Part shown: in pieces, positions 3,492 through 40,531 of the stretch
Layout: each line of letters opens with the position of its first letter
Position numbering within the stretch: the first letter of the stretch is position 1
Source: Bacteroidota bacterium
Lineage (GTDB): Bacteria; Bacteroidota; Ignavibacteria; UBA10030; UBA6906
Length of the DNA stretch: 64,000 nucleotides
Direction: 5' to 3'
Assembly: GCA_049587715.1 (NCBI GenBank)
Contig: JBAVEL010000186.1
Coordinates: 16,567 to 80,566 of the forward strand
The notes under the pieces: model-generated
What the model was told of the DNA's origin: nothing
Seen by the model: the letters and a program-made list of their open reading frames with translations, nothing else
Databases searched by the model: none
Program-made: the position numbers and the translations under genes

Positions 3492-5380
3492 TCATTGTGC
3501 TACGAATTTGTCCGTCGAAGCTCTACCTCCGGCCGGCGCTTCTTGCAGCGGCCGCCGGCTTCGCCCTTCTCCCCATCCACCCGGCTCGCGCGGAAGGGGA
3601 GGGCCGGGACCCCTCCTCGGTCCCTTCCTGGGCGGCGGAGGCGGTCTGGTATCAGATCTTCCCCGAGAGATTCCGGAACGGCGACCCGGGGAACGATCCT
3701 TCCCCCGCCGACATGGAGGGGTCCTGGCCGCACGAAACGCCTGGACTGTGGCGTGTCTCCGACTGGAAGGGGGACTGGTACGCCCTCCAGGAATGGGAGA
3801 GGGACCCGGGGAAGGGGTTCTTCCACACTGTGCAGCAACGCCGGTACGGGGGAGACCTGCAGGGGGTCCTGGACAAGCTGGACTACCTGGCCGAGCTGGG
3901 CATCACCGCGATCTACTTCAATCCCCTCTTCGAATCCCCGTCGCTGCACAAGTACGACGCGGCGATGTACCATCACATCGACAACAACTTCGGGCCGGAT
4001 CCGGCCGGAGACCGCCTGATCTGGGCCGCCGAGAACCCGGCGGACCCGGCCACGTGGCGCTGGACCTCGGCGGACAGCCTCTTCCTGCGGCTCATTGCGG
4101 AGGCGCACCGGCGGGGGATCAGGATCATCATCGACGGCGTGTTCAACCACGCGGGGATCACCTTCTGGGCGTTCCGGGATGTCCGCCGGCGCGGCGCGGC
4201 GTCGCCGTATGCCGACTGGTTCCGCATCAGGCAGTGGGACGATCCGGCAACCCCCGGGGACGAGTTCGACTACGAGGGCTGGTACGGCGTACGGGAGCTT
4301 CCCGAGTTCCGGGAGGATGACGGAGGCATCGTCCCCGGACCCAGGGAACACATCCGCCATGTGGTGCGCAGGTGGATGGATCCGAACGGAGACGGAGATC
4401 CCTCCGACGGGGTGGACGGGTGGCGCCTGGATGTGGCGGAGATGGTGGCCGTCCCCTTCTGGAGAGAGTTCCGGACCTGGGTGCGGTCACTGAATCCCGA
4501 GGCCTACCTCGTGGGCGAAGTCTGGTGGGAGGACTGGAACGCGGAAAAGATGTTCAACGCCGAGCCGTGGCTCCGGGGCGACGTATTCGACGCCGTCATG
4601 AACTACCGCTGGGCGAGGGAGGCCGGGAGGTTCTTCAAGGCCGACCGGCATCGCATCGGCGCCCCGGAATTCGACGCCCGTCTTGCGCGGCTCCGCGCGG
4701 ACTACCGCCCCGAAGTGAACGGGGTCCTCCTGAACCTGCTGGACAGCCACGATACCGACCGGCTTGCTTCCCAGATTGTGAATCGGGACGCCCTGTACGA
4801 CAAGGGGACGGGTGTGAGCGACAACCGCGCGTATGCGGTGCGGAAACCCGACGCCCGGGAGCGGAGCATCCAGAAGCTGATGGTGCTGCACCAGATGACC
4901 TACGTGGGCGCGCCGTGCGTGTACTATGGAGACGAGGCGGGCATGTGGGGGGCCGACGACCCCGACTGCCGGAAGCCGATGCTCTGGGCGGATGCGGCCT
5001 ACACCCCCGAGGTCTCCCATCCGTTCGGCCTGGAGCGGCCTGCCGACGACAACACCTTTGATGCGGATCTGTTCGCATACTACGCGGAAGCGATCCGGCT
5101 CCGGAAGTCCTTCCCCGCCCTCCGCCTGGGAAGCGTGGAAACGGTGCTGGCCGACGGCCGGAGCAACCTGCTGGTGTACCTGCGCGTCCTTCCCTCCCAG
5201 CGGGTGCTGACGGCGCTCAACCCCGGGGACGGGGCGGCGGCCTGCATCCTGACGGAGAAGGCCCTGGGGGGCGGGCGCCTGATCCGGGTCTTCGGAGAGG
5301 GGAGCGCGGAGCCCGCTCCGGGCGGCGTGTCGGTGACCATCCCCGGGAGATCCGGGTCGGTGTTCAGGGTGGCCCCGTGA
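3488..5380 (+). CDS. Secreted GH13 alpha-amylase-family glycoside hydrolase (cyclomaltodextrinase/neopullulanase-like)
   Basis: Start MIIVLRICPSK... overlaps the LacI stop (ATGA). Signal-peptide-like N-terminus. GH13 conserved regions: IIIDGVFNHAG, GWRLDVAEMV, EVWW, LLDSHDTDR. Track ORF 3419 start rejected because it is read in LacI's own frame. Confidence 0.85.
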   Translation: MIIVLRICPSKLYLRPALLAAAAGFALLPIHPARAEGEGRDPSSVPSWAAEAVWYQIFPERFRNGDPGNDPSPADMEGSWPHETPGLWRVSDWKGDWYALQEWERDPGKGFFHTVQQRRYGGDLQGVLDKLDYLAELGITAIYFNPLFESPSLHKYDAAMYHHIDNNFGPDPAGDRLIWAAENPADPATWRWTSADSLFLRLIAEAHRRGIRIIIDGVFNHAGITFWAFRDVRRRGAASPYADWFRIRQWDDPATPGDEFDYEGWYGVRELPEFREDDGGIVPGPREHIRHVVRRWMDPNGDGDPSDGVDGWRLDVAEMVAVPFWREFRTWVRSLNPEAYLVGEVWWEDWNAEKMFNAEPWLRGDVFDAVMNYRWAREAGRFFKADRHRIGAPEFDARLARLRADYRPEVNGVLLNLLDSHDTDRLASQIVNRDALYDKGTGVSDNRAYAVRKPDARERSIQKLMVLHQMTYVGAPCVYYGDEAGMWGADDPDCRKPMLWADAAYTPEVSHPFGLERPADDNTFDADLFAYYAEAIRLRKSFPALRLGSVETVLADGRSNLLVYLRVLPSQRVLTALNPGDGAAACILTEKALGGGRLIRVFGEGSAEPAPGGVSVTIPGRSGSVFRVAP

Positions 5381-35747: not shown

Positions 35748-36983
35748 TCAGGGTCTCCAGCCGAAAAACCGGCGGAGGATGTCAGGGAGTTCGTTCCGCC
35801 ACCTCCCCCAGCTGTGCCCGTCGGGGAATTCCCTGTAGGCGAGGGGGTATCCCCGCTCTTCGAGCACCTGCCGCAGACGGCGATTCCCGGCGATGAAATC
35901 GCCCTCGCGGGCCCGTGCCGCTCCTCCCACGGAGGTCTCGTACGTACCGCAGTCGAGATAGAGCGAAACATCCGGCCGGGGGAGACGTGCCGCCAGGGAG
36001 GCCAGCGTGTCGGACCGGAACGAGACGTACCCCGACTGGCTTGCCGCATTGGCGAACACATCCGGCCGGGAAAGTGCAAGCCCCAGGGATATGAGCCCGC
36101 CGTACGACGCTCCCATCGCCAGGCGGGCGGAAGGGCGTGGGATGGTGCGGAAGAGGCTGTCCACAAGCGGAACCAGCTCGTCGGCGACGAAGGAGATGTA
36201 GCTGCCGTTCAGCCCGTATTCCGTGGTGCGGTCGGTCCCGGGACCGGGAGGGGGGACGATGAAGACGGCTGCAAGCGGCGGGACCGCTTCCGCCCCATGC
36301 ATGGCGTCGAGCACGAGGACCGCCTGCGCAAACCTCAGGTAGTCCCCTCCGTCCTGGAAGTAGGCCACCCCACAGCGGAAGGAGGCCCCGGCGTATCCCG
36401 GCGGCGTGTACACGTGCACCTCGTGGGCATAGCCGAGATGGGCGCTCTTTACTCTGAGCGTGGAGAGACTCCCCCCGGGCGCCTCCGGGGCCGCGTCCGG
36501 CTCCGGAGCCCTGCGGAAGCCCGGCATGGCAAGCTCCGAGTTGGGCCCGTATCCTCCCGGCGCCGTGCGGGGGTTCTCGGGATCAAGAATGAAGGAGCCG
36601 TTCCCCAGAAGGAGCTTGTAATCCAGCCGCGCCTCGCACGGGAAGCCCATGCGGAGATGGAAGAGGTCGGTCCCCGGAAGCCGCCGGAAGGGGATCCGGG
36701 AACTCCACCCGGTCATGTCTCCCGTCAGAAAGACGCTGTCGGTGCTTCCACGGTAGAGGAAGGTCGCCGTGTCTCCCGCCGCATCCACGAGGGGAAGGCG
36801 TCCCCTGGCACTCCGGCTCCAGAGCCCCTCGACCAGACGCTCCCGTTCCTCCCCGGGGGGCGCCGCCTCGGCGCCCGCCAGCAGCGCGGGGAACCCGGGT
36901 TCAACGCCCTGCGGTCGTGTGGCGGCGCATCCGGCCGCACTCAGGAGGGCGGGGATCAGGAGGAGGAAGACGGTGGACTTCAC
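35748..36983 (-). CDS. Esterase-family alpha/beta hydrolase lipoprotein with N-terminal CBM48/Ig-like domain (paralog 2)
   Basis: GTG start. Lipobox LLSAAGC. GDMTGWSS module. Nucleophile elbow MGASYGG. Same architecture as the adjacent paralog. Confidence 0.75.
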   Translation of the reverse strand: MKSTVFLLLIPALLSAAGCAATRPQGVEPGFPALLAGAEAAPPGEERERLVEGLWSRSARGRLPLVDAAGDTATFLYRGSTDSVFLTGDMTGWSSRIPFRRLPGTDLFHLRMGFPCEARLDYKLLLGNGSFILDPENPRTAPGGYGPNSELAMPGFRRAPEPDAAPEAPGGSLSTLRVKSAHLGYAHEVHVYTPPGYAGASFRCGVAYFQDGGDYLRFAQAVLVLDAMHGAEAVPPLAAVFIVPPPGPGTDRTTEYGLNGSYISFVADELVPLVDSLFRTIPRPSARLAMGASYGGLISLGLALSRPDVFANAASQSGYVSFRSDTLASLAARLPRPDVSLYLDCGTYETSVGGAARAREGDFIAGNRRLRQVLEERGYPLAYREFPDGHSWGRWRNELPDILRRFFGWRP

Positions 36984-37036
36984 CTTCGGGCATGCGCCTG
37001 TGGATGGCGGAATATACGCACGCGGGATGCGGGAAG

Positions 37037-37044
37037 CAATCGGC
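37037..37044. repeat. Target-site duplication copy 1 (CAATCGGC)
   Basis: 8-bp direct repeat abutting IRL. The identical 8-mer abuts IRR at 40053-40060. Confidence 0.65.
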
Positions 37045-37079
37045 GGTACTGTCCTAATTAGGGGGAGGTTGTCCTAAAT
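37045..37079. repeat. Left terminal inverted repeat (IRL, 35 bp; contains two tgtcctaa sub-repeats)
   Basis: See the mobile_element entry. Confidence 0.75.
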
Positions 37080-37185
37080 CGGTGGGAGTTCCACGATCCT
37101 CGCGCCATACATGAAACGCGAGTTTAGAATCCAACCAGCTTGGAAGGCTGGTTTTCTTCATGACCGCTTCACTCCCACCGATTCA

Positions 37186-38025
37186 TTATGCGGCCGCCCT
37201 CTGTGTTGCCCAACCCGACAAACCCGTCCATGTCCAAATGTGCTTTGTTAGACCCGCCTCCATCGCGGGGGTAACGCGTAGCGTCTCGTGGACCCTGGCG
37301 AAGTTGTAATGCCAGAAGTACAGCGCCAGAGCCGCTTTTAGGTTCTCCCATTTCTTGCTGTAGGCGTTGGTGAGACGCGCAAACCGCTTCATCCCTATCC
37401 TCATGCTGAGATTCTGCCTCTCAATGTGGGAGGTTGAAATGTGCTTCCGCTTAGGCTTGCCGAAGACGGGTATTATTTCCACCCGGACAATGCCTGCCGG
37501 ACTGTACCGCCTTTCAGGGCTTCTATCCACCTGGGCGTAACTCTTCGCAACCTGCCCGTAGTCAATATCTGCCCCCCAAATCCTATCCACAACATCGCGG
37601 TAGGGCGAGAAGGCATCGGTTGAAAGTTGGAATCGTGTCTTGACGCGGGCGGCCACATCCCGCATGAATACCTCTGCGGTCTGGACGGTCCGCTTCCCAA
37701 GTCTGAAAGACGGGATGAGCTTGGAGTCGCTGTCCATAGCCACAAAGCAATACTGATCGCCCGTAAACTCGTCTTGGTTTTCGGGGCGAATGAAACGCTG
37801 GTGCTTCCCTACATAGGTCCAGATTTCATCAACTTGGAGTCTCTTCACGCTCAGGTCCCGCATTTCAGAGTCCATGAACGCCTCACACGCTTCCCCGGCT
37901 GATACGAGAAGCCGCATGATCGTGTCCCGGTGAATCCCGGATAGGCGTTCGGTGGATCGGATTGAGTTCCCTTCGGCCAAGAGGGAAAGGGCAAGGGCCT
38001 TCTTTTCAGCAGACAGTACGTTCAT
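37186..38025 (-). CDS. IS1-family-like transposase (single ORF: N-terminal HTH + DDE catalytic domain)
   Basis: N-terminal HTH MNVLSAEKKALALSLLAEGNSIRSTERLSGIHRDTIMRLL. Catalytic region KRLQVDEIWTYVGKH...CFVAMDSDSKL...ISTSHIERQNLSMRIGMKRFARLTNAYSKKWENLKAALALYFWHYNF. Its spacing parallels E. coli IS1 InsB (MDEQWGYVG...[25 protein letters not shown]). GGAG RBS. An IS1595-like assignment is not excluded. Confidence 0.75.
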   Translation of the reverse strand: MNVLSAEKKALALSLLAEGNSIRSTERLSGIHRDTIMRLLVSAGEACEAFMDSEMRDLSVKRLQVDEIWTYVGKHQRFIRPENQDEFTGDQYCFVAMDSDSKLIPSFRLGKRTVQTAEVFMRDVAARVKTRFQLSTDAFSPYRDVVDRIWGADIDYGQVAKSYAQVDRSPERRYSPAGIVRVEIIPVFGKPKRKHISTSHIERQNLSMRIGMKRFARLTNAYSKKWENLKAALALYFWHYNFARVHETLRVTPAMEAGLTKHIWTWTGLSGWATQRAAA

Positions 38026-38048
38026 CGCGAGTCTCCGTCAGATTCCGA

Positions 38049-38077
38049 TTTGACTTTCCCCCGCGATGAACGTATAT
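38049..38077 (+). promoter_or_regulatory. Sigma70-like promoter TTGACT-N17-TATATT facing away from the transposase start
   Basis: ttgactttcccccgcgatgaacgtatatt lies immediately upstream (on the plus strand) of a structured ~190-nt region ending in an intrinsic terminator. Confidence 0.5.
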
Positions 38078-38084
38078 TAGGTCA

Positions 38085-38275
38085 GGGTCTATGTCCGTTC
38101 ACGCGGGCATGGATTTCAGGGCTTCGAAGGTGGTCACACACCTGAGAAGCCCGCTTGTAAGCGGGCCTACTGTGGTATTTTGAGCTGCTTACTCATACAC
38201 CCATCCTTTCCCGAAGCGTTGCAGCGCTTCGATTGAGGTTTGACAGAGGCGCTCTTAGTGAGCGCCTTTTTATTT
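38085..38275 (+). ncRNA. Candidate small RNA (~190 nt) inside the mobile element, between the transposase 5-prime end and the 128-aa gene 3-prime end
   Basis: Bounded by the TTGACT-N17-TATATT promoter and an intrinsic terminator (aggcgctc ttagt gagcgcct + ttttattt). Two further hairpins lie inside (gcccgcttgtaagcgggc, cgaagcgttgcagcgcttcg). The only ORF is 30 codons without a convincing RBS. Confidence 0.3.
38247..38275 (+). terminator. Intrinsic terminator (8-bp GC stem + TTTTATTT) for the candidate sRNA
   Basis: AGGCGCTCttagtGAGCGCCTttttattt. Oriented for plus-strand transcription. Overlaps the stop codon of the convergent 128-aa gene. Confidence 0.5.
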
Positions 38276-38656
38276 GAGGTCATAGACCCCTCGGGCCGCC
38301 CGCTTAAGTCTTGCACTCTTCTTATCACATTCCTGGGACAGAATAGCACCAAGAGCCCTCGCCTTGTCCTTGTTATCGCCCAGACTGATCCCCTTTTCCT
38401 CCACCGCGAACTTCAAGACCTCTTCATTCGTCACATGTCTCCCCATCCTATGAATCAGCTCGATAGTCGCATCTACAACACGGCCTCGGATCGTGTTCGA
38501 GCCTGGGCGTGGCGGAGAGACTGAGACGGCCAACGCTCCTGTCTCGCCCCCAGACTCGCCCTTGCGTATCGCGATCAGTTGAAGAAGAAGCTCCCTTTCC
38601 CTTTCAATCTCTGTAAGTCGGGCCTCCAGGACTTCGGTCGAAAGTGTGGCACACAT
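38270..38656 (-). CDS. Hypothetical 128-aa protein (N-terminal coiled coil, possible C-terminal DNA-binding fold), cargo of the mobile element
   Basis: ATG at 38656 with AGGAG RBS. Its own TTGACA-N17-TATACT promoter lies upstream. Sequence is MCATLSTEVLEARLTEIERERELLLQLIAIRKG...TIRGRVVDATIELIHRMGRHVTNEEVLKFAVEEKGISLG... No family recognised. Confidence 0.6.
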   Translation of the reverse strand: MCATLSTEVLEARLTEIERERELLLQLIAIRKGESGGETGALAVSVSPPRPGSNTIRGRVVDATIELIHRMGRHVTNEEVLKFAVEEKGISLGDNKDKARALGAILSQECDKKSARLKRAARGVYDLK

Positions 38657-38683
38657 GTTTAGGTTCTCCTATTAGCCGGGTAT

Positions 38684-38712
38684 AGTATACAAAAAAACCC
38701 TTTACTTGTCAA
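38684..38712 (-). promoter_or_regulatory. Sigma70-like promoter TTGACA-N17-TATACT for the 128-aa gene (minus strand)
   Basis: Reverse complement reads cTTGACAagtaaagggtttttttgTATACTataccc, about 28 nt upstream of the ATG. Confidence 0.6.
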
Positions 38713-38748
38713 GCCCACCACGGTCCGCATTTTAGGCTTCCTATGGAC

Positions 38749-38776
38749 GCCGCAATGCATTATGCCGCAATCAATT
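38749..38776. promoter_or_regulatory. Two direct 13-mer repeats GCCGCAATnnATT between divergent promoters (candidate operator)
   Basis: acGCCGCAATgcATTatGCCGCAATcaATTgtgg lies between the 128-aa gene promoter and the panA-like promoter. Confidence 0.35.
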
Positions 38777-38784
38777 GTGGTTGC

Positions 38785-38813
38785 TTGCTTTTTGTGTTTC
38801 GCTGTTGTATATT
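38785..38813 (+). promoter_or_regulatory. Promoter TTGCTT-N17-TATATT for the Panacea-domain operon
   Basis: ttgcttgctttttgtgtttcgctgttgtatatt. The transcript would start ~25 nt before the strong AGGAGG RBS of the 38844 gene. Confidence 0.45.
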
Positions 38814-38843
38814 GGGTTGTAGAACATACCAGGAGGTCACAAC

Positions 38844-39314
38844 ATGTATCCCATGAAGGCCATCGCCAACTTCTTCATTGATAGGGCGATGAAGGAGGGG
38901 GCCGAAATGAGCCCTATGAAGATCCAAAAGCTGTTATATTTCGCTTACGGGATATACCACGTCAAAACGGGGGAACCTTTGTTTAGCGATAGGTTCGAAG
39001 TATGGAAATACGGTCCCGTTATCTCTGAGCTTTACCATTTGCTCAAGGGATACGGAAGCGATCAGATCGACAGGCTTTTGCCGGATTTTGACATGGCAAC
39101 TATGAGAGTTGTCACGCCGACGATCCCGAGGGAAGAAAAGGAATTACTCGTCTTTCTAACTGAGTTTTGGGAGGTCTACAGGGGGTATTCGCCTATTCGG
39201 CTCTCAAATGCAACCCATCTTCCTGGAACACCGTGGGATGAGGCGAATCGAGCAGGCGAGAAGGTCATCAGCGATCAACGCATGGATGCCTACTTCAGCG
39301 GCTTGGTGCAATGA
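38844..39314 (+). CDS. Panacea-domain (DUF4065) protein, PanA-like putative antitoxin
   Basis: AGGAGG RBS 7 nt upstream. MSPMKIQKLLYFAYGIYHVKTGEPLFSDRFEVWKYGPVISELYHLLKGYG matches the conserved Panacea core (SocA/PanA antitoxins). Stop overlaps the next start (ATGA). Confidence 0.8.
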   Translation: MYPMKAIANFFIDRAMKEGAEMSPMKIQKLLYFAYGIYHVKTGEPLFSDRFEVWKYGPVISELYHLLKGYGSDQIDRLLPDFDMATMRVVTPTIPREEKELLVFLTEFWEVYRGYSPIRLSNATHLPGTPWDEANRAGEKVISDQRMDAYFSGLVQ

Positions 39315-39661
39315 AACTCATGGGAGTCCCGAAGTTACCCCCAGGTCCAGAAGCGCCCACGCTCCAAACACAGCAGGAAATGGAGCTTTACCATTGTAAG
39401 GAGTCGGACCTTAGACTAAGGGGGATAGCACAGGACATTGAGGAAAGAAAGACCTACGCTCGAAAAACCTTCAGATTAGCAGGCTGGTGGCTCTTTGGGG
39501 TGTTTGTCTTGCTTATCCTGGGTGGGCTCAAAATGGAGCCTCTCATGTTCCAATTGCCCGAGAGCGTATTGTTGGCTGTGATCGGGGGAACAACTCTAAA
39601 CATACTGGGGGTCTTTGTGTTCGTAATGAAGTACCTCTTCGATGTGAAGAGGGAGGTATAG
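39311..39661 (+). CDS. Small (116 aa) protein with a soluble N-terminal region and two C-terminal TM helices; candidate cognate toxin of the Panacea antitoxin
   Basis: Translationally coupled to the Panacea gene. TM1 FRLAGWWLFGVFVLLILGGL, TM2 SVLLAVIGGTTLNILGVFVFVM. No family recognised. Confidence 0.55.
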   Translation: MKLMGVPKLPPGPEAPTLQTQQEMELYHCKESDLRLRGIAQDIEERKTYARKTFRLAGWWLFGVFVLLILGGLKMEPLMFQLPESVLLAVIGGTTLNILGVFVFVMKYLFDVKREV

Positions 39662-39696
39662 AAAAAACCCCGAAGCTGTTTGCAGCAACTTCGGGG
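39662..39696 (-). terminator. Perfect 8-bp GC hairpin (CCCCGAAG/CTTCGGGG) with the T-run on the minus strand, immediately after the 116-aa gene stop
   Basis: Plus strand aaaaaaCCCCGAAGctgtttgcagcaaCTTCGGGGtcgg. The U-tract exists only for minus-strand transcription. It may also serve as a 3-prime stabiliser of the plus-strand operon. Confidence 0.45.
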
Positions 39697-39766
39697 TCGG
39701 AAACCGTTCCGCCCGGCTAACTGATGGGGCAAGCTTCGAGGCGGAGGGCTCAAGGTATTGCTCTCC

Positions 39767-39795
39767 AATATACAAAACTCTGAGCCCGAAAGCAA
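39767..39795 (-). promoter_or_regulatory. Possible convergent promoter TTGCTT-N17-TATATT (minus strand), same architecture as the panA-like promoter
   Basis: Reverse complement reads gcTTGCTTtcgggctcagagttttgTATATTgg. It shares ttgtatattgg with the 38785-38813 promoter. It would drive a short transcript ending at the 39662-39696 terminator. Confidence 0.3.
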
Positions 39796-39984
39796 GCCCC
39801 CGCCACTCATCGAAAGGGCCTCTTCTATGGCCATTTCAGGGTCTCGGCAGGGCTATAGGCTCATTTTCGTTGCCTATATCACGCTGAGAAATAGGAAGCG
39901 GATCTACGCAAGAGATTATGGCTTGCGGGCGTTCGCGATTTGGGTGAGGGACGATTAGTCTCTGACCCATCTGAGGCAAAACAC

Positions 39985-40021
39985 GGGACCCCGCATTGCT
40001 GTTCGGGGTCCCGTTCTATTT
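39985..40021. terminator. Bidirectional hairpin terminator (GGGACCCCG/CGGGGTCCC) just inside IRR
   Basis: 9-bp perfect stem. gttctattt follows on the plus strand and gtgttttg follows on the minus strand. Confidence 0.45.
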
Positions 40022-40052
40022 AGGACAAAACCCCTCTAATTAGGACAGCACC
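40018..40052. repeat. Right terminal inverted repeat (IRR, 35 bp)
   Basis: atttaggacaaaacccctctaattaggacagcacc is the inverse complement of IRL at 30/35 positions. Confidence 0.75.
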
Positions 40053-40060
40053 CAATCGGC
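40053..40060. repeat. Target-site duplication copy 2 (CAATCGGC)
   Basis: 8-bp direct repeat abutting IRR. Confidence 0.65.
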
Positions 40061-40150
40061 CCTCTGTTTGATTTTCGTGGCACCAGGCGTTATCTTGAGC
40101 CGGGCGCACGCGGCGGGGGCGCGTATCGGGGACCATCAGACGAACGCTGC

Positions 40151-40531
40151 ATGGAGCAGGAACACAGGCCGGGAGTTCTCCTCTGCGAGGACCAGGAGCA
40201 GATCCTGGAGCTGATGGTCCTTGTCTTCGAGATGGAGGGCTTCGAAGTCCACCGGGCCAGGGACGGCGAGGAGGGTCTGGCTGTCCTGGGAGCGGCAATG
40301 GAACGGATTGACGCCCTGGTGACGGACCTGGGCCTTCCCCGCCTGGAGGGGCTGGAGTTGATCGCCCGGGCCCGCGCGATCAAGCCCTCCCTCAAGATCA
40401 TAGGATCCAGCGGCTACGGACGGGCGAACGTGCGGGAGGAGGTCCTGGCGGCGGGAGCAGACGATTTCATGGGGAAGCCGATTGCAGCGAAGGATCTCGT
40501 GGACAGGGTGAAGGGACTCCTGGGGCTGTGA
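40151..40531 (+). CDS. Single-domain response regulator (CheY-like receiver)
   Basis: REC-domain features: phospho-acceptor region [11 protein letters not shown] and lysine in FMGKP. Confidence 0.8.

Follow-up and report, generated by a model that had tools for sequence, protein, structure and literature searches.

The window, by which we mean the whole 64,000-nucleotide stretch of DNA analysed, contains an IS1-family transposon that carries a predicted small RNA (sRNA) gene upstream of, and divergent from, its transposase gene (tnp; Table 1). The element has the traits by which the IS1 family is recognized, namely an IS1-type DDE transposase, inverted repeats starting with GGT (GGTACTGTCC and GGTGCTGTCC) and a target duplication of 8-9 bp, and its GC content is ~52%, versus ~67% in the flanks. 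The tnp product matched the NCBIfam model transpos_IS1 (E = 3.7e-17, below the curated cut-off of the model) and Pfam DDE_Tnp_IS1, the latter with a score slightly under the gathering score. More than 6000 homologues of tnp were found, and those of the 120 listed that have a source name bear the label “IS1 family transposase”; the nearest transposase relative among the matches listed is P0002 (79%). When searched for in the window, the inverted-repeat motif was present at the two element ends only, and a covariance model of the sRNA gave a single match there, with no second copy of the RNA. In the plasmid collection, the transposase had distant relatives only (42.5% identity or less), and nothing matched the sRNA region.

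Upstream of tnp lies a gene for a 128-aa protein with a coiled coil and a winged-helix-like C-terminus, for which matches to HARE-HTH and Rok were weak. The first-pass annotation had called this gene convergent; it is indeed on the minus strand, but it is co-directional with tnp, so that the predicted sRNA is antisense, and along its full length complementary, to the spacer between two same-strand genes. The 128-aa gene has a near-consensus promoter, and tnp-sense transcripts crossing the sRNA region probably originate from this gene. A same-strand ORF or called gene also precedes tnp in 21 of the 26 RNA-bearing loci, and three of the other five have too little upstream sequence to judge. These upstream genes belong to at least five small families (jackhmmer, blastp), and comparison of profiles between families gave a weak result (45% probability) in one pair and none in a second. 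Homologues of the 128-aa protein itself were identified in L166, L170 and L089. The last of these loci, which has no sRNA and carries a tRNA-Leu in the spacer, is uninformative.

Table 1. Features of the transposon and of the predicted sRNA gene within it.
Feature	Position	Strand	Remarks
Target duplication, 8 bp	37037-37044 and 40053-40060		CAATCGGC
Host element, IS1-family transposon	37045..40052		3008 bp
Terminal inverted repeats, 35 nt	37045-37079 and 40018-40052		86% complementary
tnp, IS1-family transposase gene	37186..38025	-	279 aa; start codon 38025-38023; NCBIfam and Pfam matches
Segment a'	38018..38029	-	CGCGAUGAACGU; on tnp mRNA, holds tnp start codon
Predicted sRNA promoter	38050..38078	+	-35 TTGACT 38050-38055; 17-nt spacer; -10 TATATT 38073-38078
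Segment b'	38062..38073	-	ACGUUCAUCGCG; tnp-sense copy of sRNA promoter spacer
Predicted sRNA	38085..38277	+	~190 nt; start from -10 box, 3' end from terminator T-run
Hairpin H1	38085..38116	+	14 bp, loop UCAC; from covariation and individual folds of 22 homologues
30-codon ORF	38091-38183	+	Within sRNA
Segment c	38095-38108	+	CCGTTCACGCGGGC; H1 apex and 3' side
Segment c'	38095..38108	-	GCCCGCGUGAACGG; complement of H1 apex
Hairpin H2	38119..38152	+	7 + 5 bp
Hairpin H3	38149..38166	+	GCCCGC-UUGUAA-GCGGGC; window's subgroup only
Mini-ORF	38167..38196	-	MSKQLKIPQ*; SD-like GGAAAGGA at 38204-38211
13-mer	38189..38201	+	TTACTCATACACC; outside every conserved hairpin
Hairpin H4	38212..38231	+	CGAAGCG-TTGCAG-CGCTTCG
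Predicted intrinsic terminator of sRNA	38245..38277	+	Overlaps stop codon of 128-aa gene
128-aa gene	38270..38656	-	Upstream of tnp, co-directional; stop codon 38270-38272
Promoter of 128-aa gene	38684..38712	-	TTGACA-N17-TATACT; 11/12 consensus positions

The predicted sRNA gene in the window

The plus-strand promoter reported by the first-pass annotation is located as claimed, its -35 box beginning 24 bp beyond the tnp start codon. It agrees with the consensus at 10 of 12 positions, and three such sites occur in the 3-kb region where 1.5 are expected. The 5' end of the sRNA was placed from the position of the -10 box and the 3' end from the T-run of the terminator, which was likewise present as proposed and whose T-run covers the stop codon of the 128-aa gene. 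The terminator consists of GGCGCTC-TTAGT-GAGCGCC (38248-38266) followed by TTTTTATTT, the stem being lengthened by a scan to 10 pairs (38245-38269), and works for the plus strand only; on the minus-strand side the hairpin is followed by TCTGTCAAAC. The predicted transcript folds at -88.4 kcal/mol (z = -6.4), which was equalled by none of 200 shuffles, and its complement gives z = -4.3; the signal above chance comes from the conservation described below rather than from the window taken by itself. The first-pass annotation had counted two further stable hairpins inside the interval; there are four (H1 to H4), among which H2 and H3 are mutually exclusive, given that the 3' arm of the former and the 5' arm of the latter have GCCC in common.

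Rfam 15 was searched with cmscan over 36500-40500 (E <= 10), with no plus-strand match in 38040-38280 and thus no family near its gathering score. Only Trp_leader matched within the interval, on the opposite strand and with 16.7 bits (E = 9.2; gathering score 41), which reflects a generic hairpin. The reading that this match hints at, H3 as a minus-strand terminator or attenuator, was rejected because U-tails on the minus strand are not conserved in L001 and L164.

Two short ORFs overlap the sRNA. The 30-codon plus-strand ORF noted in the first reading exists, with an ATG that is homologous in position in only 6 of 25 sequences and within 2 nt in three more; ORF lengths at this site range from 19 to 67 codons among relatives, and the ORF is missing from the close relatives L164, L166 and L173. 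As neither start codon nor frame is conserved, a micro-protein gene was rejected. On the minus strand, a mini-ORF antisense to the 3' half of the sRNA is kept as 8-9 codons in eight members of the window's subgroup, with synonymous changes at third positions. The opposite strand of its start region is the 13-mer UUACUCAUACACC (38189-38201), identical in seven of the eight subgroup members and with one change in L176.

Conservation and covariation among related elements

Using covariance models, we identified the 5' core of the RNA (H1 and H2) in 27 of ~170 tnp-bearing loci, on the strand opposite tnp in every match and starting 40-55 nt from the tnp start codon in 23 of the 25 matches with a placed start. 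Among the loci searched, the family is confined to two tnp clades, and 16 of the 18 members of the clade holding the window possess the motif. The RNA-bearing elements with organism names come from Bacteroidota, Ignavibacteriota, Acidobacteriota and Proteobacteria. The sRNA lies inside the inverted repeats in the window, L006, L034 and L101, and in L001 and L002 the DNA of the sRNA region is more conserved than the tnp coding sequence.

Sequence comparison also revealed that the pairs of both hairpins are maintained. In an alignment of 24 sequences, 91.3% of H1/H2 cells were paired versus 73.8% in shuffles and at most 52% in slid controls, and the observed pairing was reached by 0 of 500 shuffles, a count that is not a probability, since the sequences share ancestry and their alignments were fitted to the model; the analysis was also run on an 18-sequence set. 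Double changes were found in 16 of the 18 pairs of H1 and H2 (24 sequences), and an independent MAFFT and RNAalifold run scored nine of 18 pairs as compensatory. Furthermore, G-U or U-G pairs make up ~16% of H1/H2 cells, and the sRNA sense was more stable than its complement in 22 of 22 homologues, by a mean of 12.4 kcal/mol (Wilcoxon p = 4.8e-7). Together, these comparisons identify the region as a predicted structured non-coding RNA in which compensatory changes preserve pairing on one strand, with H1 and H2 at the putative transcript start and under selection on the sRNA strand.

The signals bounding the transcript are similarly retained. Promoters with at least 8 of 12 consensus positions occur in 18 of 22 relatives, and 16 of those 18 promoters stop 1-10 nt short of the H1 base. 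The mean score among relatives is 8.2/12 versus 5.0 in shuffles, which marks out a conserved predicted promoter of sigma-70 type directed away from tnp. The whole ~190 nt is kept in the closest relatives, L164 and L166, and H4 and the terminator are also kept in L176; in all three the terminator stem is identical and H4 has undergone one compensatory C-G to U-A change. In L001, L170 and L172, unrelated terminator-like hairpins with T-rich tails occupy the same place. H3 was found in 10 relatives with its stem kept and its loop variable, and the H2 apex, GUG...CAC, in most family members. In the wider family, conservation is limited to the first ~70 nt (H1 and H2); in distant relatives H2 doubles as a terminator stem and is followed by a U-rich tail, so that the RNA would end at ~75-80 nt. 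The predicted end is an intrinsic terminator throughout. In the window and the elements most closely related to it, the terminator lies ~190 nt downstream, as the first-pass annotation proposed; in distant relatives it comes immediately beyond H2, and the ~190-nt length does not hold for the family as a whole. The central proposal of that annotation, that the element contains beside the transposase start a discrete plus-strand sRNA gene bounded by a promoter and a terminator of its own, is supported, having withstood those of the annotation's refuting conditions that sequence can address.

Alternative pairings on the transposase-sense strand

The tnp-sense strand of the spacer holds three short segments, of which b' can pair with a' or, alternatively, with c', the same b' nucleotides serving both pairings. 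Across the family, a' contains either the Shine-Dalgarno (SD) sequence or the start codon of tnp, and in the window and most of 22 relatives a predicted a'-b' fold-back hairpin hides one or the other. Cognate duplexes were stronger than non-cognate ones for b'-a' (-22.6 vs -14.1 kcal/mol) and for b'-c' (-23.4 vs -15.6 kcal/mol), each with a permutation P < 2e-4, a significance that is inflated by the relatedness of the sequences. In addition, b'-c' was better than its sense-strand control in 25 of 25 cases, and the tnp-sense strand was the more stable for the two pairings in 21 of 25 (p = 1e-4) and 18 of 25 (p = 0.004). These comparisons identify a', b' and c' as three co-evolving segments of the spacer, with both predicted pairings co-varying. 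Selection for the two pairings in the tnp sense would imply transcripts that span these segments, and any tnp-sense transcript starting upstream of 38085 is by construction complementary to the sRNA.

Predicted accessibility of the tnp start site across eight loci was mostly 0.4-0.66 with c' and ~0.2 without it. For the window and its closest relatives, the equilibrium fold has the start site closed with or without c', and a switch would consequently have to be kinetic.

A search for a conserved tnp promoter in the relatives found none. The first-pass annotation had suggested a minus-strand -10 hexamer for tnp (TAATAT) overlapping the -10 region of the sRNA; this hexamer is not conserved, and promoter occlusion is therefore not the best-supported mechanism. 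A second candidate -10 for tnp, in the H1-H2 linker (TGAAAT, TAAAAT), was rejected, having passed the A2/T6 rule in few loci only.

Probable antisense repression and competing explanations

We are moderately confident that the sRNA region encodes a cis-antisense regulatory RNA of the IS1-family transposon, repressing tnp by pairing with its leader. A separate transcription unit inside the element, on the opposite strand and near the 5' end of the transposase gene, is the arrangement that marks IS-encoded antisense regulators, and the predicted sRNA gene has it. According to this model, tnp would be transcribed mostly by read-through from the promoter of the upstream gene, and pairing of c' with b' in the read-through transcript would leave the tnp start site open. 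The sRNA, in excess owing to its stronger promoter, would capture c', probably beginning with a loop-loop contact at H1; b' would then be released to close the start site, and a substrate for RNase III would probably be formed as well. Translation of the transposase would be held down in this way, potentially in trans on all copies of the element, and convergent transcription from the sRNA promoter may contribute transcriptional interference. The invariant H2 apex and the conserved 13-mer are left unexplained by the antisense-repressor model.

RNA-OUT of IS10/Tn10, which is antisense to the transposase mRNA RNA-IN (PMC5006887), offers a first comparison. Both are small, stably folded RNAs that lie within an insertion sequence, adjoin the transposase start and have their own promoter, the stronger one (here a prediction), and both would be expected to act in trans, holding down transposase translation from every copy of the element. 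In IS10, a fold-back structure also blocks translation of read-through transcripts. The two RNAs share no similarity in sequence or structure (no Rfam match), and the transposases belong to different families (IS4 and IS1). Moreover, RNA-OUT overlaps the 5' end and ribosome-binding site of RNA-IN, whereas the sRNA described here starts (~38085) 60 nt upstream of the tnp start codon (38025) and runs away from it, and so cannot cover the start site in cis. A second precedent is IS200, which combines the art200 sRNA with an SD-sequestering hairpin in the tnpA 5' UTR (PMC4513863). The present element resembles it in having a predicted antisense sRNA opposite the transposase leader together with a predicted mRNA hairpin that would hide the ribosome-binding site, and differs in its transposase (DDE here, HUH in IS200). 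In IS200, art200 overlaps the start region, unlike here, and acts independently of the hairpin; here the 5' arm of the hairpin has a second conserved partner, c', in the region complementary to the sRNA, which suggests that the two layers are coupled.

Segment c, comprising the H1 loop and its 3' side, resembles b' and might instead pair in trans with the ribosome-binding region a', occluding it directly as RNA-OUT does; such an action would also block short mRNAs that do not overlap the sRNA gene. In the window, the sRNA sequence 5'-CGUUCACGCG-3' is complementary to 5'-CGCG-A-UGAACG-3' of the mRNA over the start codon (10 bp, one bulge), and cognate c-a' duplexes were stronger than non-cognate ones (-19.3 vs -16.2 kcal/mol, permutation P = 2e-4, again subject to inflation by relatedness). 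This signal is, however, far below that of b'-c' (median cognate rank 8 of 25 vs 1), and no clear cognate preference emerged when entire sRNAs were tested for trans pairing against the tnp start region. Given also that c lies partly within the H1 stem and, in the second clade (the L101 group), pairs with just 4-6 nt of the start region, we consider direct occlusion unlikely.

Function might also reside in the DNA and in the leader read in the tnp sense, with a strong outward-facing promoter that interferes transcriptionally with read-through into tnp and a short transcript that is a by-product. The sRNA promoter does oppose the near-consensus promoter of the upstream gene, its spacer also serves as b', and it is in the tnp sense that selection acts on the fold-back and on c'-b' pairing. 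A by-product, however, would need neither selected hairpins nor terminators, and the wobble pairs and sense-strand stability given above point to selection of H1 and H2 on the sRNA strand, where terminators or U-rich tails are maintained even with unrelated sequences. We regard interference as the whole explanation as quite improbable.

Two other readings appear highly improbable. In one, a, b and c are repeated operator sites through which a DNA-binding protein, either the transposase with its N-terminal HTH or the upstream HTH-like protein, controls both divergent promoters; a motif of ~12 bp does recur three times in alternating orientation, over the tnp start, the promoter spacer and positions +10 to +24 of the sRNA, and InsA of IS1 represses at the IS1 end. 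The motif is nevertheless wholly different between clades (CGCGATGAACG vs GGCAAGCC) while its complementarity is kept, it shifts from the start codon to the SD between them, wobble pairs give both pairings strand specificity, and the upstream proteins fall into several sequence families without established relatedness. In the other, the RNA regulates host or cargo genes in trans, using the 13-mer as a seed, or is a cofactor of transposition. The 13-mer lies outside the conserved hairpins and is nearly invariant in the subgroup, the H2 apex is invariant in most members, and conservation of the RNA exceeds what antisense function by itself would need; on the other side, the transposase is an ordinary DDE enzyme of the IS1 family, and the 13-mer coincides with the start of the conserved mini-ORF, an overlap that can explain its conservation. 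A related and somewhat less remote idea, to which we give a slim chance, is that the 13-mer and H2 apex contact a partner other than the tnp leader and that the RNA is more than a copy-number brake. Were the partner the transposase or the upstream HTH-like protein, the RNA could be a cofactor or sensor of transposition; were it host or cargo mRNAs, the RNA would be a transposon-borne trans-acting regulator.

Mobile elements also encode guide RNAs, such as the bridge RNA of the IS110 family, the seekRNA of IS1111 and the omega RNA of IS200/IS605. These are co-directional with the gene for the recombinase or nuclease, or overlap it, and have loops complementary to donor and target DNA. The sRNA is like them in being a conserved structured RNA in a non-coding part adjoining a recombinase gene, but a guide function was rejected, as the sRNA is divergent from a gene for a DDE transposase, with no DEDD recombinase or TnpB/IscB, and its duplex energies with both ends and flanks of four elements (both strands) were not above shuffles (|z| <= 1.4).

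For the cis-antisense repressor that we favour, there are parallels in logic among the antisense RNAs of plasmid copy-number control, namely CopA/CopT of R1 with the tap leader peptide and Inc RNA of ColIb-P9 with repY/repZ. In common with these, the predicted sRNA is ~70-190 nt long and made of stem-loops, is complementary to a putative leader upstream of the regulated start site rather than across the start, has a regulated start closed by local structure and an expected loop-loop initiation, and, in the window's subgroup only, covers a short leader ORF. The context is a transposon here and a replicon there, and no pseudoknot activator was identified. Unlike in the plasmid systems, the mini-ORF is unlikely to be directly coupled to tnp in translation, since it ends ~140 nt before tnp.

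Few bacterial insertion sequences are as widespread as those of the IS1 family, and the control known for the family is by protein, through programmed frameshifting and repression by InsA. No RNA regulator of IS1-family elements was found in the literature searched, nor is there a matching Rfam model. The predicted sRNA represents a new family of antisense RNAs, defined in two clades of IS1-type elements, within an established class of IS regulators. Should the model hold, the plasmid-style logic of an antisense RNA that captures an activator segment would enter transposon biology, annotation pipelines would gain a model for a feature that is presently blank, and a small, portable translational switch would be on offer. 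The layout of the locus is unusually compact, the same ~100 bp holding an RNA structure under selection on the sRNA strand and a predicted three-segment alternative-pairing switch under selection on the opposite strand, with the sRNA promoter spacer doubling as the arm that would close the transposase start site.

The predicted small RNA gene and its host transposon

The predicted ~190-nt small RNA (sRNA) is held by a complete, 3008-bp IS1-family transposon (37045-40052), which is a recent insertion of ~52% GC in a host of ~67% GC. Each of its terminal inverted repeats contains two copies of TGTCCTAA, and a transposase identical to that of the window is on record in a contig named "MAG: Bacteroidota bacterium". 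A TTGACT-N17-TATATT promoter beginning 24 bp beyond the start codon of the transposase gene, tnp (38025-38023, minus strand), and a canonical terminator overlapping the stop codon of a 128-aa gene are both present as described in the first-pass annotation. The 128-aa gene, there called convergent, lies on the same strand as tnp, which makes the sRNA antisense to the 245-nt stretch separating the two genes. The 193-nt sRNA interval has a fold energy of -88.4 kcal/mol (z = -6.4; complement, z = -4.3), and an Rfam 15 scan returned no plus-strand match to it, even at E <= 10; the sRNA is outside every Rfam family. The alternative of a 30-codon micro-protein gene was ruled out, as the ORF is not conserved in relatives.

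Features of the sRNA locus and its transposon, in window positions
Feature	Position	Strand	Remark
Target duplication, 8 bp	37037-37044 and 40053-40060		CAATCGGC, intact
Terminal inverted repeats, 35 nt	37045-37079 and 40018-40052		GGTACTGTCCTAATTAG...
tnp	38025 to 37186	-	
sRNA promoter, -35	38050-38055	+	TTGACT, then 17-nt spacer
sRNA promoter, -10	38073-38078	+	TATATT
b' (5' arm of leader hairpin)	38073 to 38062	-	copy of sRNA promoter spacer
H1	38085-38116	+	adjoins H2
c'	38108 to 38095	-	complement of H1 apex
H2	38119-38152	+	
H3		+	GCCCGC-loop-GCGGGC; four bases in common with H2
Mini-ORF MSKQLKIPQ*	38196 to 38167	- (tnp-sense)	SD-like sequence at 38204-38211
Intrinsic terminator	38245-38277	+ only	GGCGCTC-TTAGT-GAGCGCC + TTTTTATTT
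128-aa gene	38656 to 38270	-	upstream of and co-directional with tnp
Promoter of 128-aa gene	38712 to 38684	-	TTGACA-N17-TATACT, near-consensus
SocA/Panacea antitoxin and two-transmembrane partner	38844-39661	+	

The 128-aa protein has a coiled coil at its N-terminus and is winged-helix-like at its C-terminus, with weak matches to HARE-HTH and Rok; homologues occupy the same position in the related loci L166 and L170, and different small HTH-like genes do so in most other RNA-bearing elements. The cargo, probably a toxin-antitoxin pair, comprises genes for a 156-aa SocA/Panacea-domain antitoxin and, downstream, a two-transmembrane protein of 116 aa, the stop codon of the first overlapping the start codon of the second; in L166 the SocA_Panacea pair lies on the other side of the transposase gene. 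Just downstream of the toxin-like gene, the minus strand carries a strong intrinsic terminator (39698-39666; 13 pairs and a T-run). The 350 nt from there to the right inverted repeat (39662-40017) contain no convincing ORF and give a weak Rfam anti-hemB match (E = 0.098); this region may encode another small transcript or block read-in transcription.

Conservation of the 5' core and promoter

Genomes, metagenomes and assemblies yielded about 175 loci with relatives of the transposase (about 170 non-redundant). In the nearest relatives, conservation of the DNA upstream of tnp extends across the promoter and ~125 nt into the sRNA. Two rounds of covariance-model searches of the non-redundant loci identified the 5' core (hairpins H1 and H2) in 27, bearing out its conservation in related elements; every match lies on the strand opposite tnp, and the core starts 40-55 nt from the tnp start codon in 23 of the 25 matches with a placed start. 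RNA-bearing elements group in the transposase tree, comprising 16/18 of the window's clade and a second block of nine.

Folding each homologue individually gave the same two adjacent hairpins. Across 24 sequences, in alignments fitted to the model and of sequences related to one another, 91.3% of cells were paired versus 73.8% in column shuffles, none of 500 shuffles reached the observed pairing values, and 16 of 18 pairs had changed on both sides. Sliding the partners by 1-3 columns lowered pairing to <=52%, G-U or U-G made up about 16% of paired cells, and the initial eight sequences, independently aligned with MAFFT and analysed with RNAalifold, gave 9/18 compensatory pairs. The sRNA sense was more stable than its complement in 22/22 comparisons (mean 12.4 kcal/mol). 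A sigma-70-type promoter matching eight or more of the 12 consensus positions was found in 18/22 relatives (mean match 8.2/12 versus 5.0 in shuffles); in 16 of these 18, between 1 and 10 nt separate its end from the base of H1. Together, these comparisons show a predicted promoter-hairpins-terminator unit that is conserved and selected on the plus strand.

An IS1 subgroup without the H1/H2 RNA (L015, L019, L100 and L122) carries a conserved palindrome, CATACGTGAGCnGnTCACGTATG, adjoining the transposase start or up to ~260 nt upstream of it, possibly an operator or the hairpin of another RNA. In another locus, L089, the spacer separating a homologue of the 128-aa gene from an IS1-family transposase gene contains a tRNA-Leu(CAG) gene (3793-3865) and a second tRNA-like stretch uncalled by ARAGORN.

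The 3' part of the sRNA

In distant relatives a U-rich tail directly follows H2, suggesting an RNA of about 75-80 nt there. In the subgroup of the window, the RNA continues beyond H2 with H3, the conserved GGTATTTTAAGC, the near-invariant 13-mer TTACTCATACACC, H4 (with one compensatory change) and the terminator. All of these are common to the window, L164 and L166, while L176 keeps H4 and the terminator with small changes upstream; the transposases of these three loci share only 63-65% identity with that of the window. In L001, L170 and L172 the last third is replaced, at the same distance, by unrelated terminator-like hairpins with T-rich tails. The full length in common with L164/L166 and the alternative terminators elsewhere support the original ~190-nt estimate for the window element. 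Between H4 and the terminator, GGTTTGACA (38238-38245, plus strand), which includes a perfect -35 hexamer without a matching -10, is kept in L164 and L166; L176 has GGTTTGGTCA instead.

The 3' half of the sRNA also covers a mini-ORF of the opposite strand, whose stop codon abuts H3. An 8-9 codon version is kept in eight relatives (e.g. MSKPLKIPA*, MSNVLKIP*, MSEPLKIPL*, MSKVLKLIQ*), with synonymous third-position changes at Leu5, Pro8 and Lys3, and MSKQLKIPQ* may be a leader peptide.

Alternative pairings in the transposase leader

A predicted hairpin of the tnp-sense leader, pairing b' with a', sequesters the start codon in the clade of the window and, in the second clade, the Shine-Dalgarno sequence, and c' is complementary to the same b' nucleotides that pair with a'. 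Cognate pairings were more stable than non-cognate ones for both b'-a' (-22.6 versus -14.1 kcal/mol) and b'-c' (-23.4 versus -15.6 kcal/mol; permutation P < 2e-4 for each). The b'-c' pairing (-21.0 kcal/mol) also exceeded a sense-strand control (-13.6 kcal/mol; better in 25/25) and shuffled b' (-10.0 kcal/mol), and stability was higher in the tnp sense in 21/25 cases for b'-c' (p = 1e-4) and 18/25 for b'-a' (p = 0.004). The three-way relation is kept although the clade sequences wholly differ (CGCGATGAACG versus GGCAAGCC). On the minus strand of the ~100 bp that also carry the sRNA unit, two mutually exclusive predicted pairings are shown to be conserved and under selection. Across eight loci, predicted start-site accessibility was mostly 0.4-0.66 with c' and about 0.2 without it; the predicted equilibrium favours the closed start site in the subgroup to which the window belongs.

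We propose that tnp is read mainly from the promoter of the upstream gene. A same-strand ORF or called gene lies upstream in 21/26 RNA-bearing loci (in three of the other five the upstream sequence is too short), and a search across relatives found no conserved tnp promoter. Pairing of c' with b' would hold the start site open; the sRNA would pair with its perfect complement, c' included, and capture of c' would free b' and close the start site, the sRNA-leader duplex probably being cut by RNase III. Since release of b' would close the start site, the sRNA would be a repressor, and one that could reach every copy. The H1 loop may also pair directly with the tnp start region, forming 10 bp with one bulge in the window, but this is weakly supported across the family. 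Promoter occlusion through the overlapping minus-strand TAATAT, suggested by the first-pass annotation, was not supported, and no support was found for a guide-RNA role.

The literature searched reports no RNA regulator for the IS1 family. RNA-OUT of IS10 is an antisense regulator overlapping the start site (PMC5006887), as is art200 of IS200, where a hairpin also hides the Shine-Dalgarno sequence (PMC4513863). The sRNA resembles both in its proposed working, but unlike them does not overlap the start site. Some plasmid copy-number RNAs bind a leader at a point upstream of a start site that is closed by structure, and the geometry of the sRNA is closer to theirs than to that of RNA-OUT or art200.
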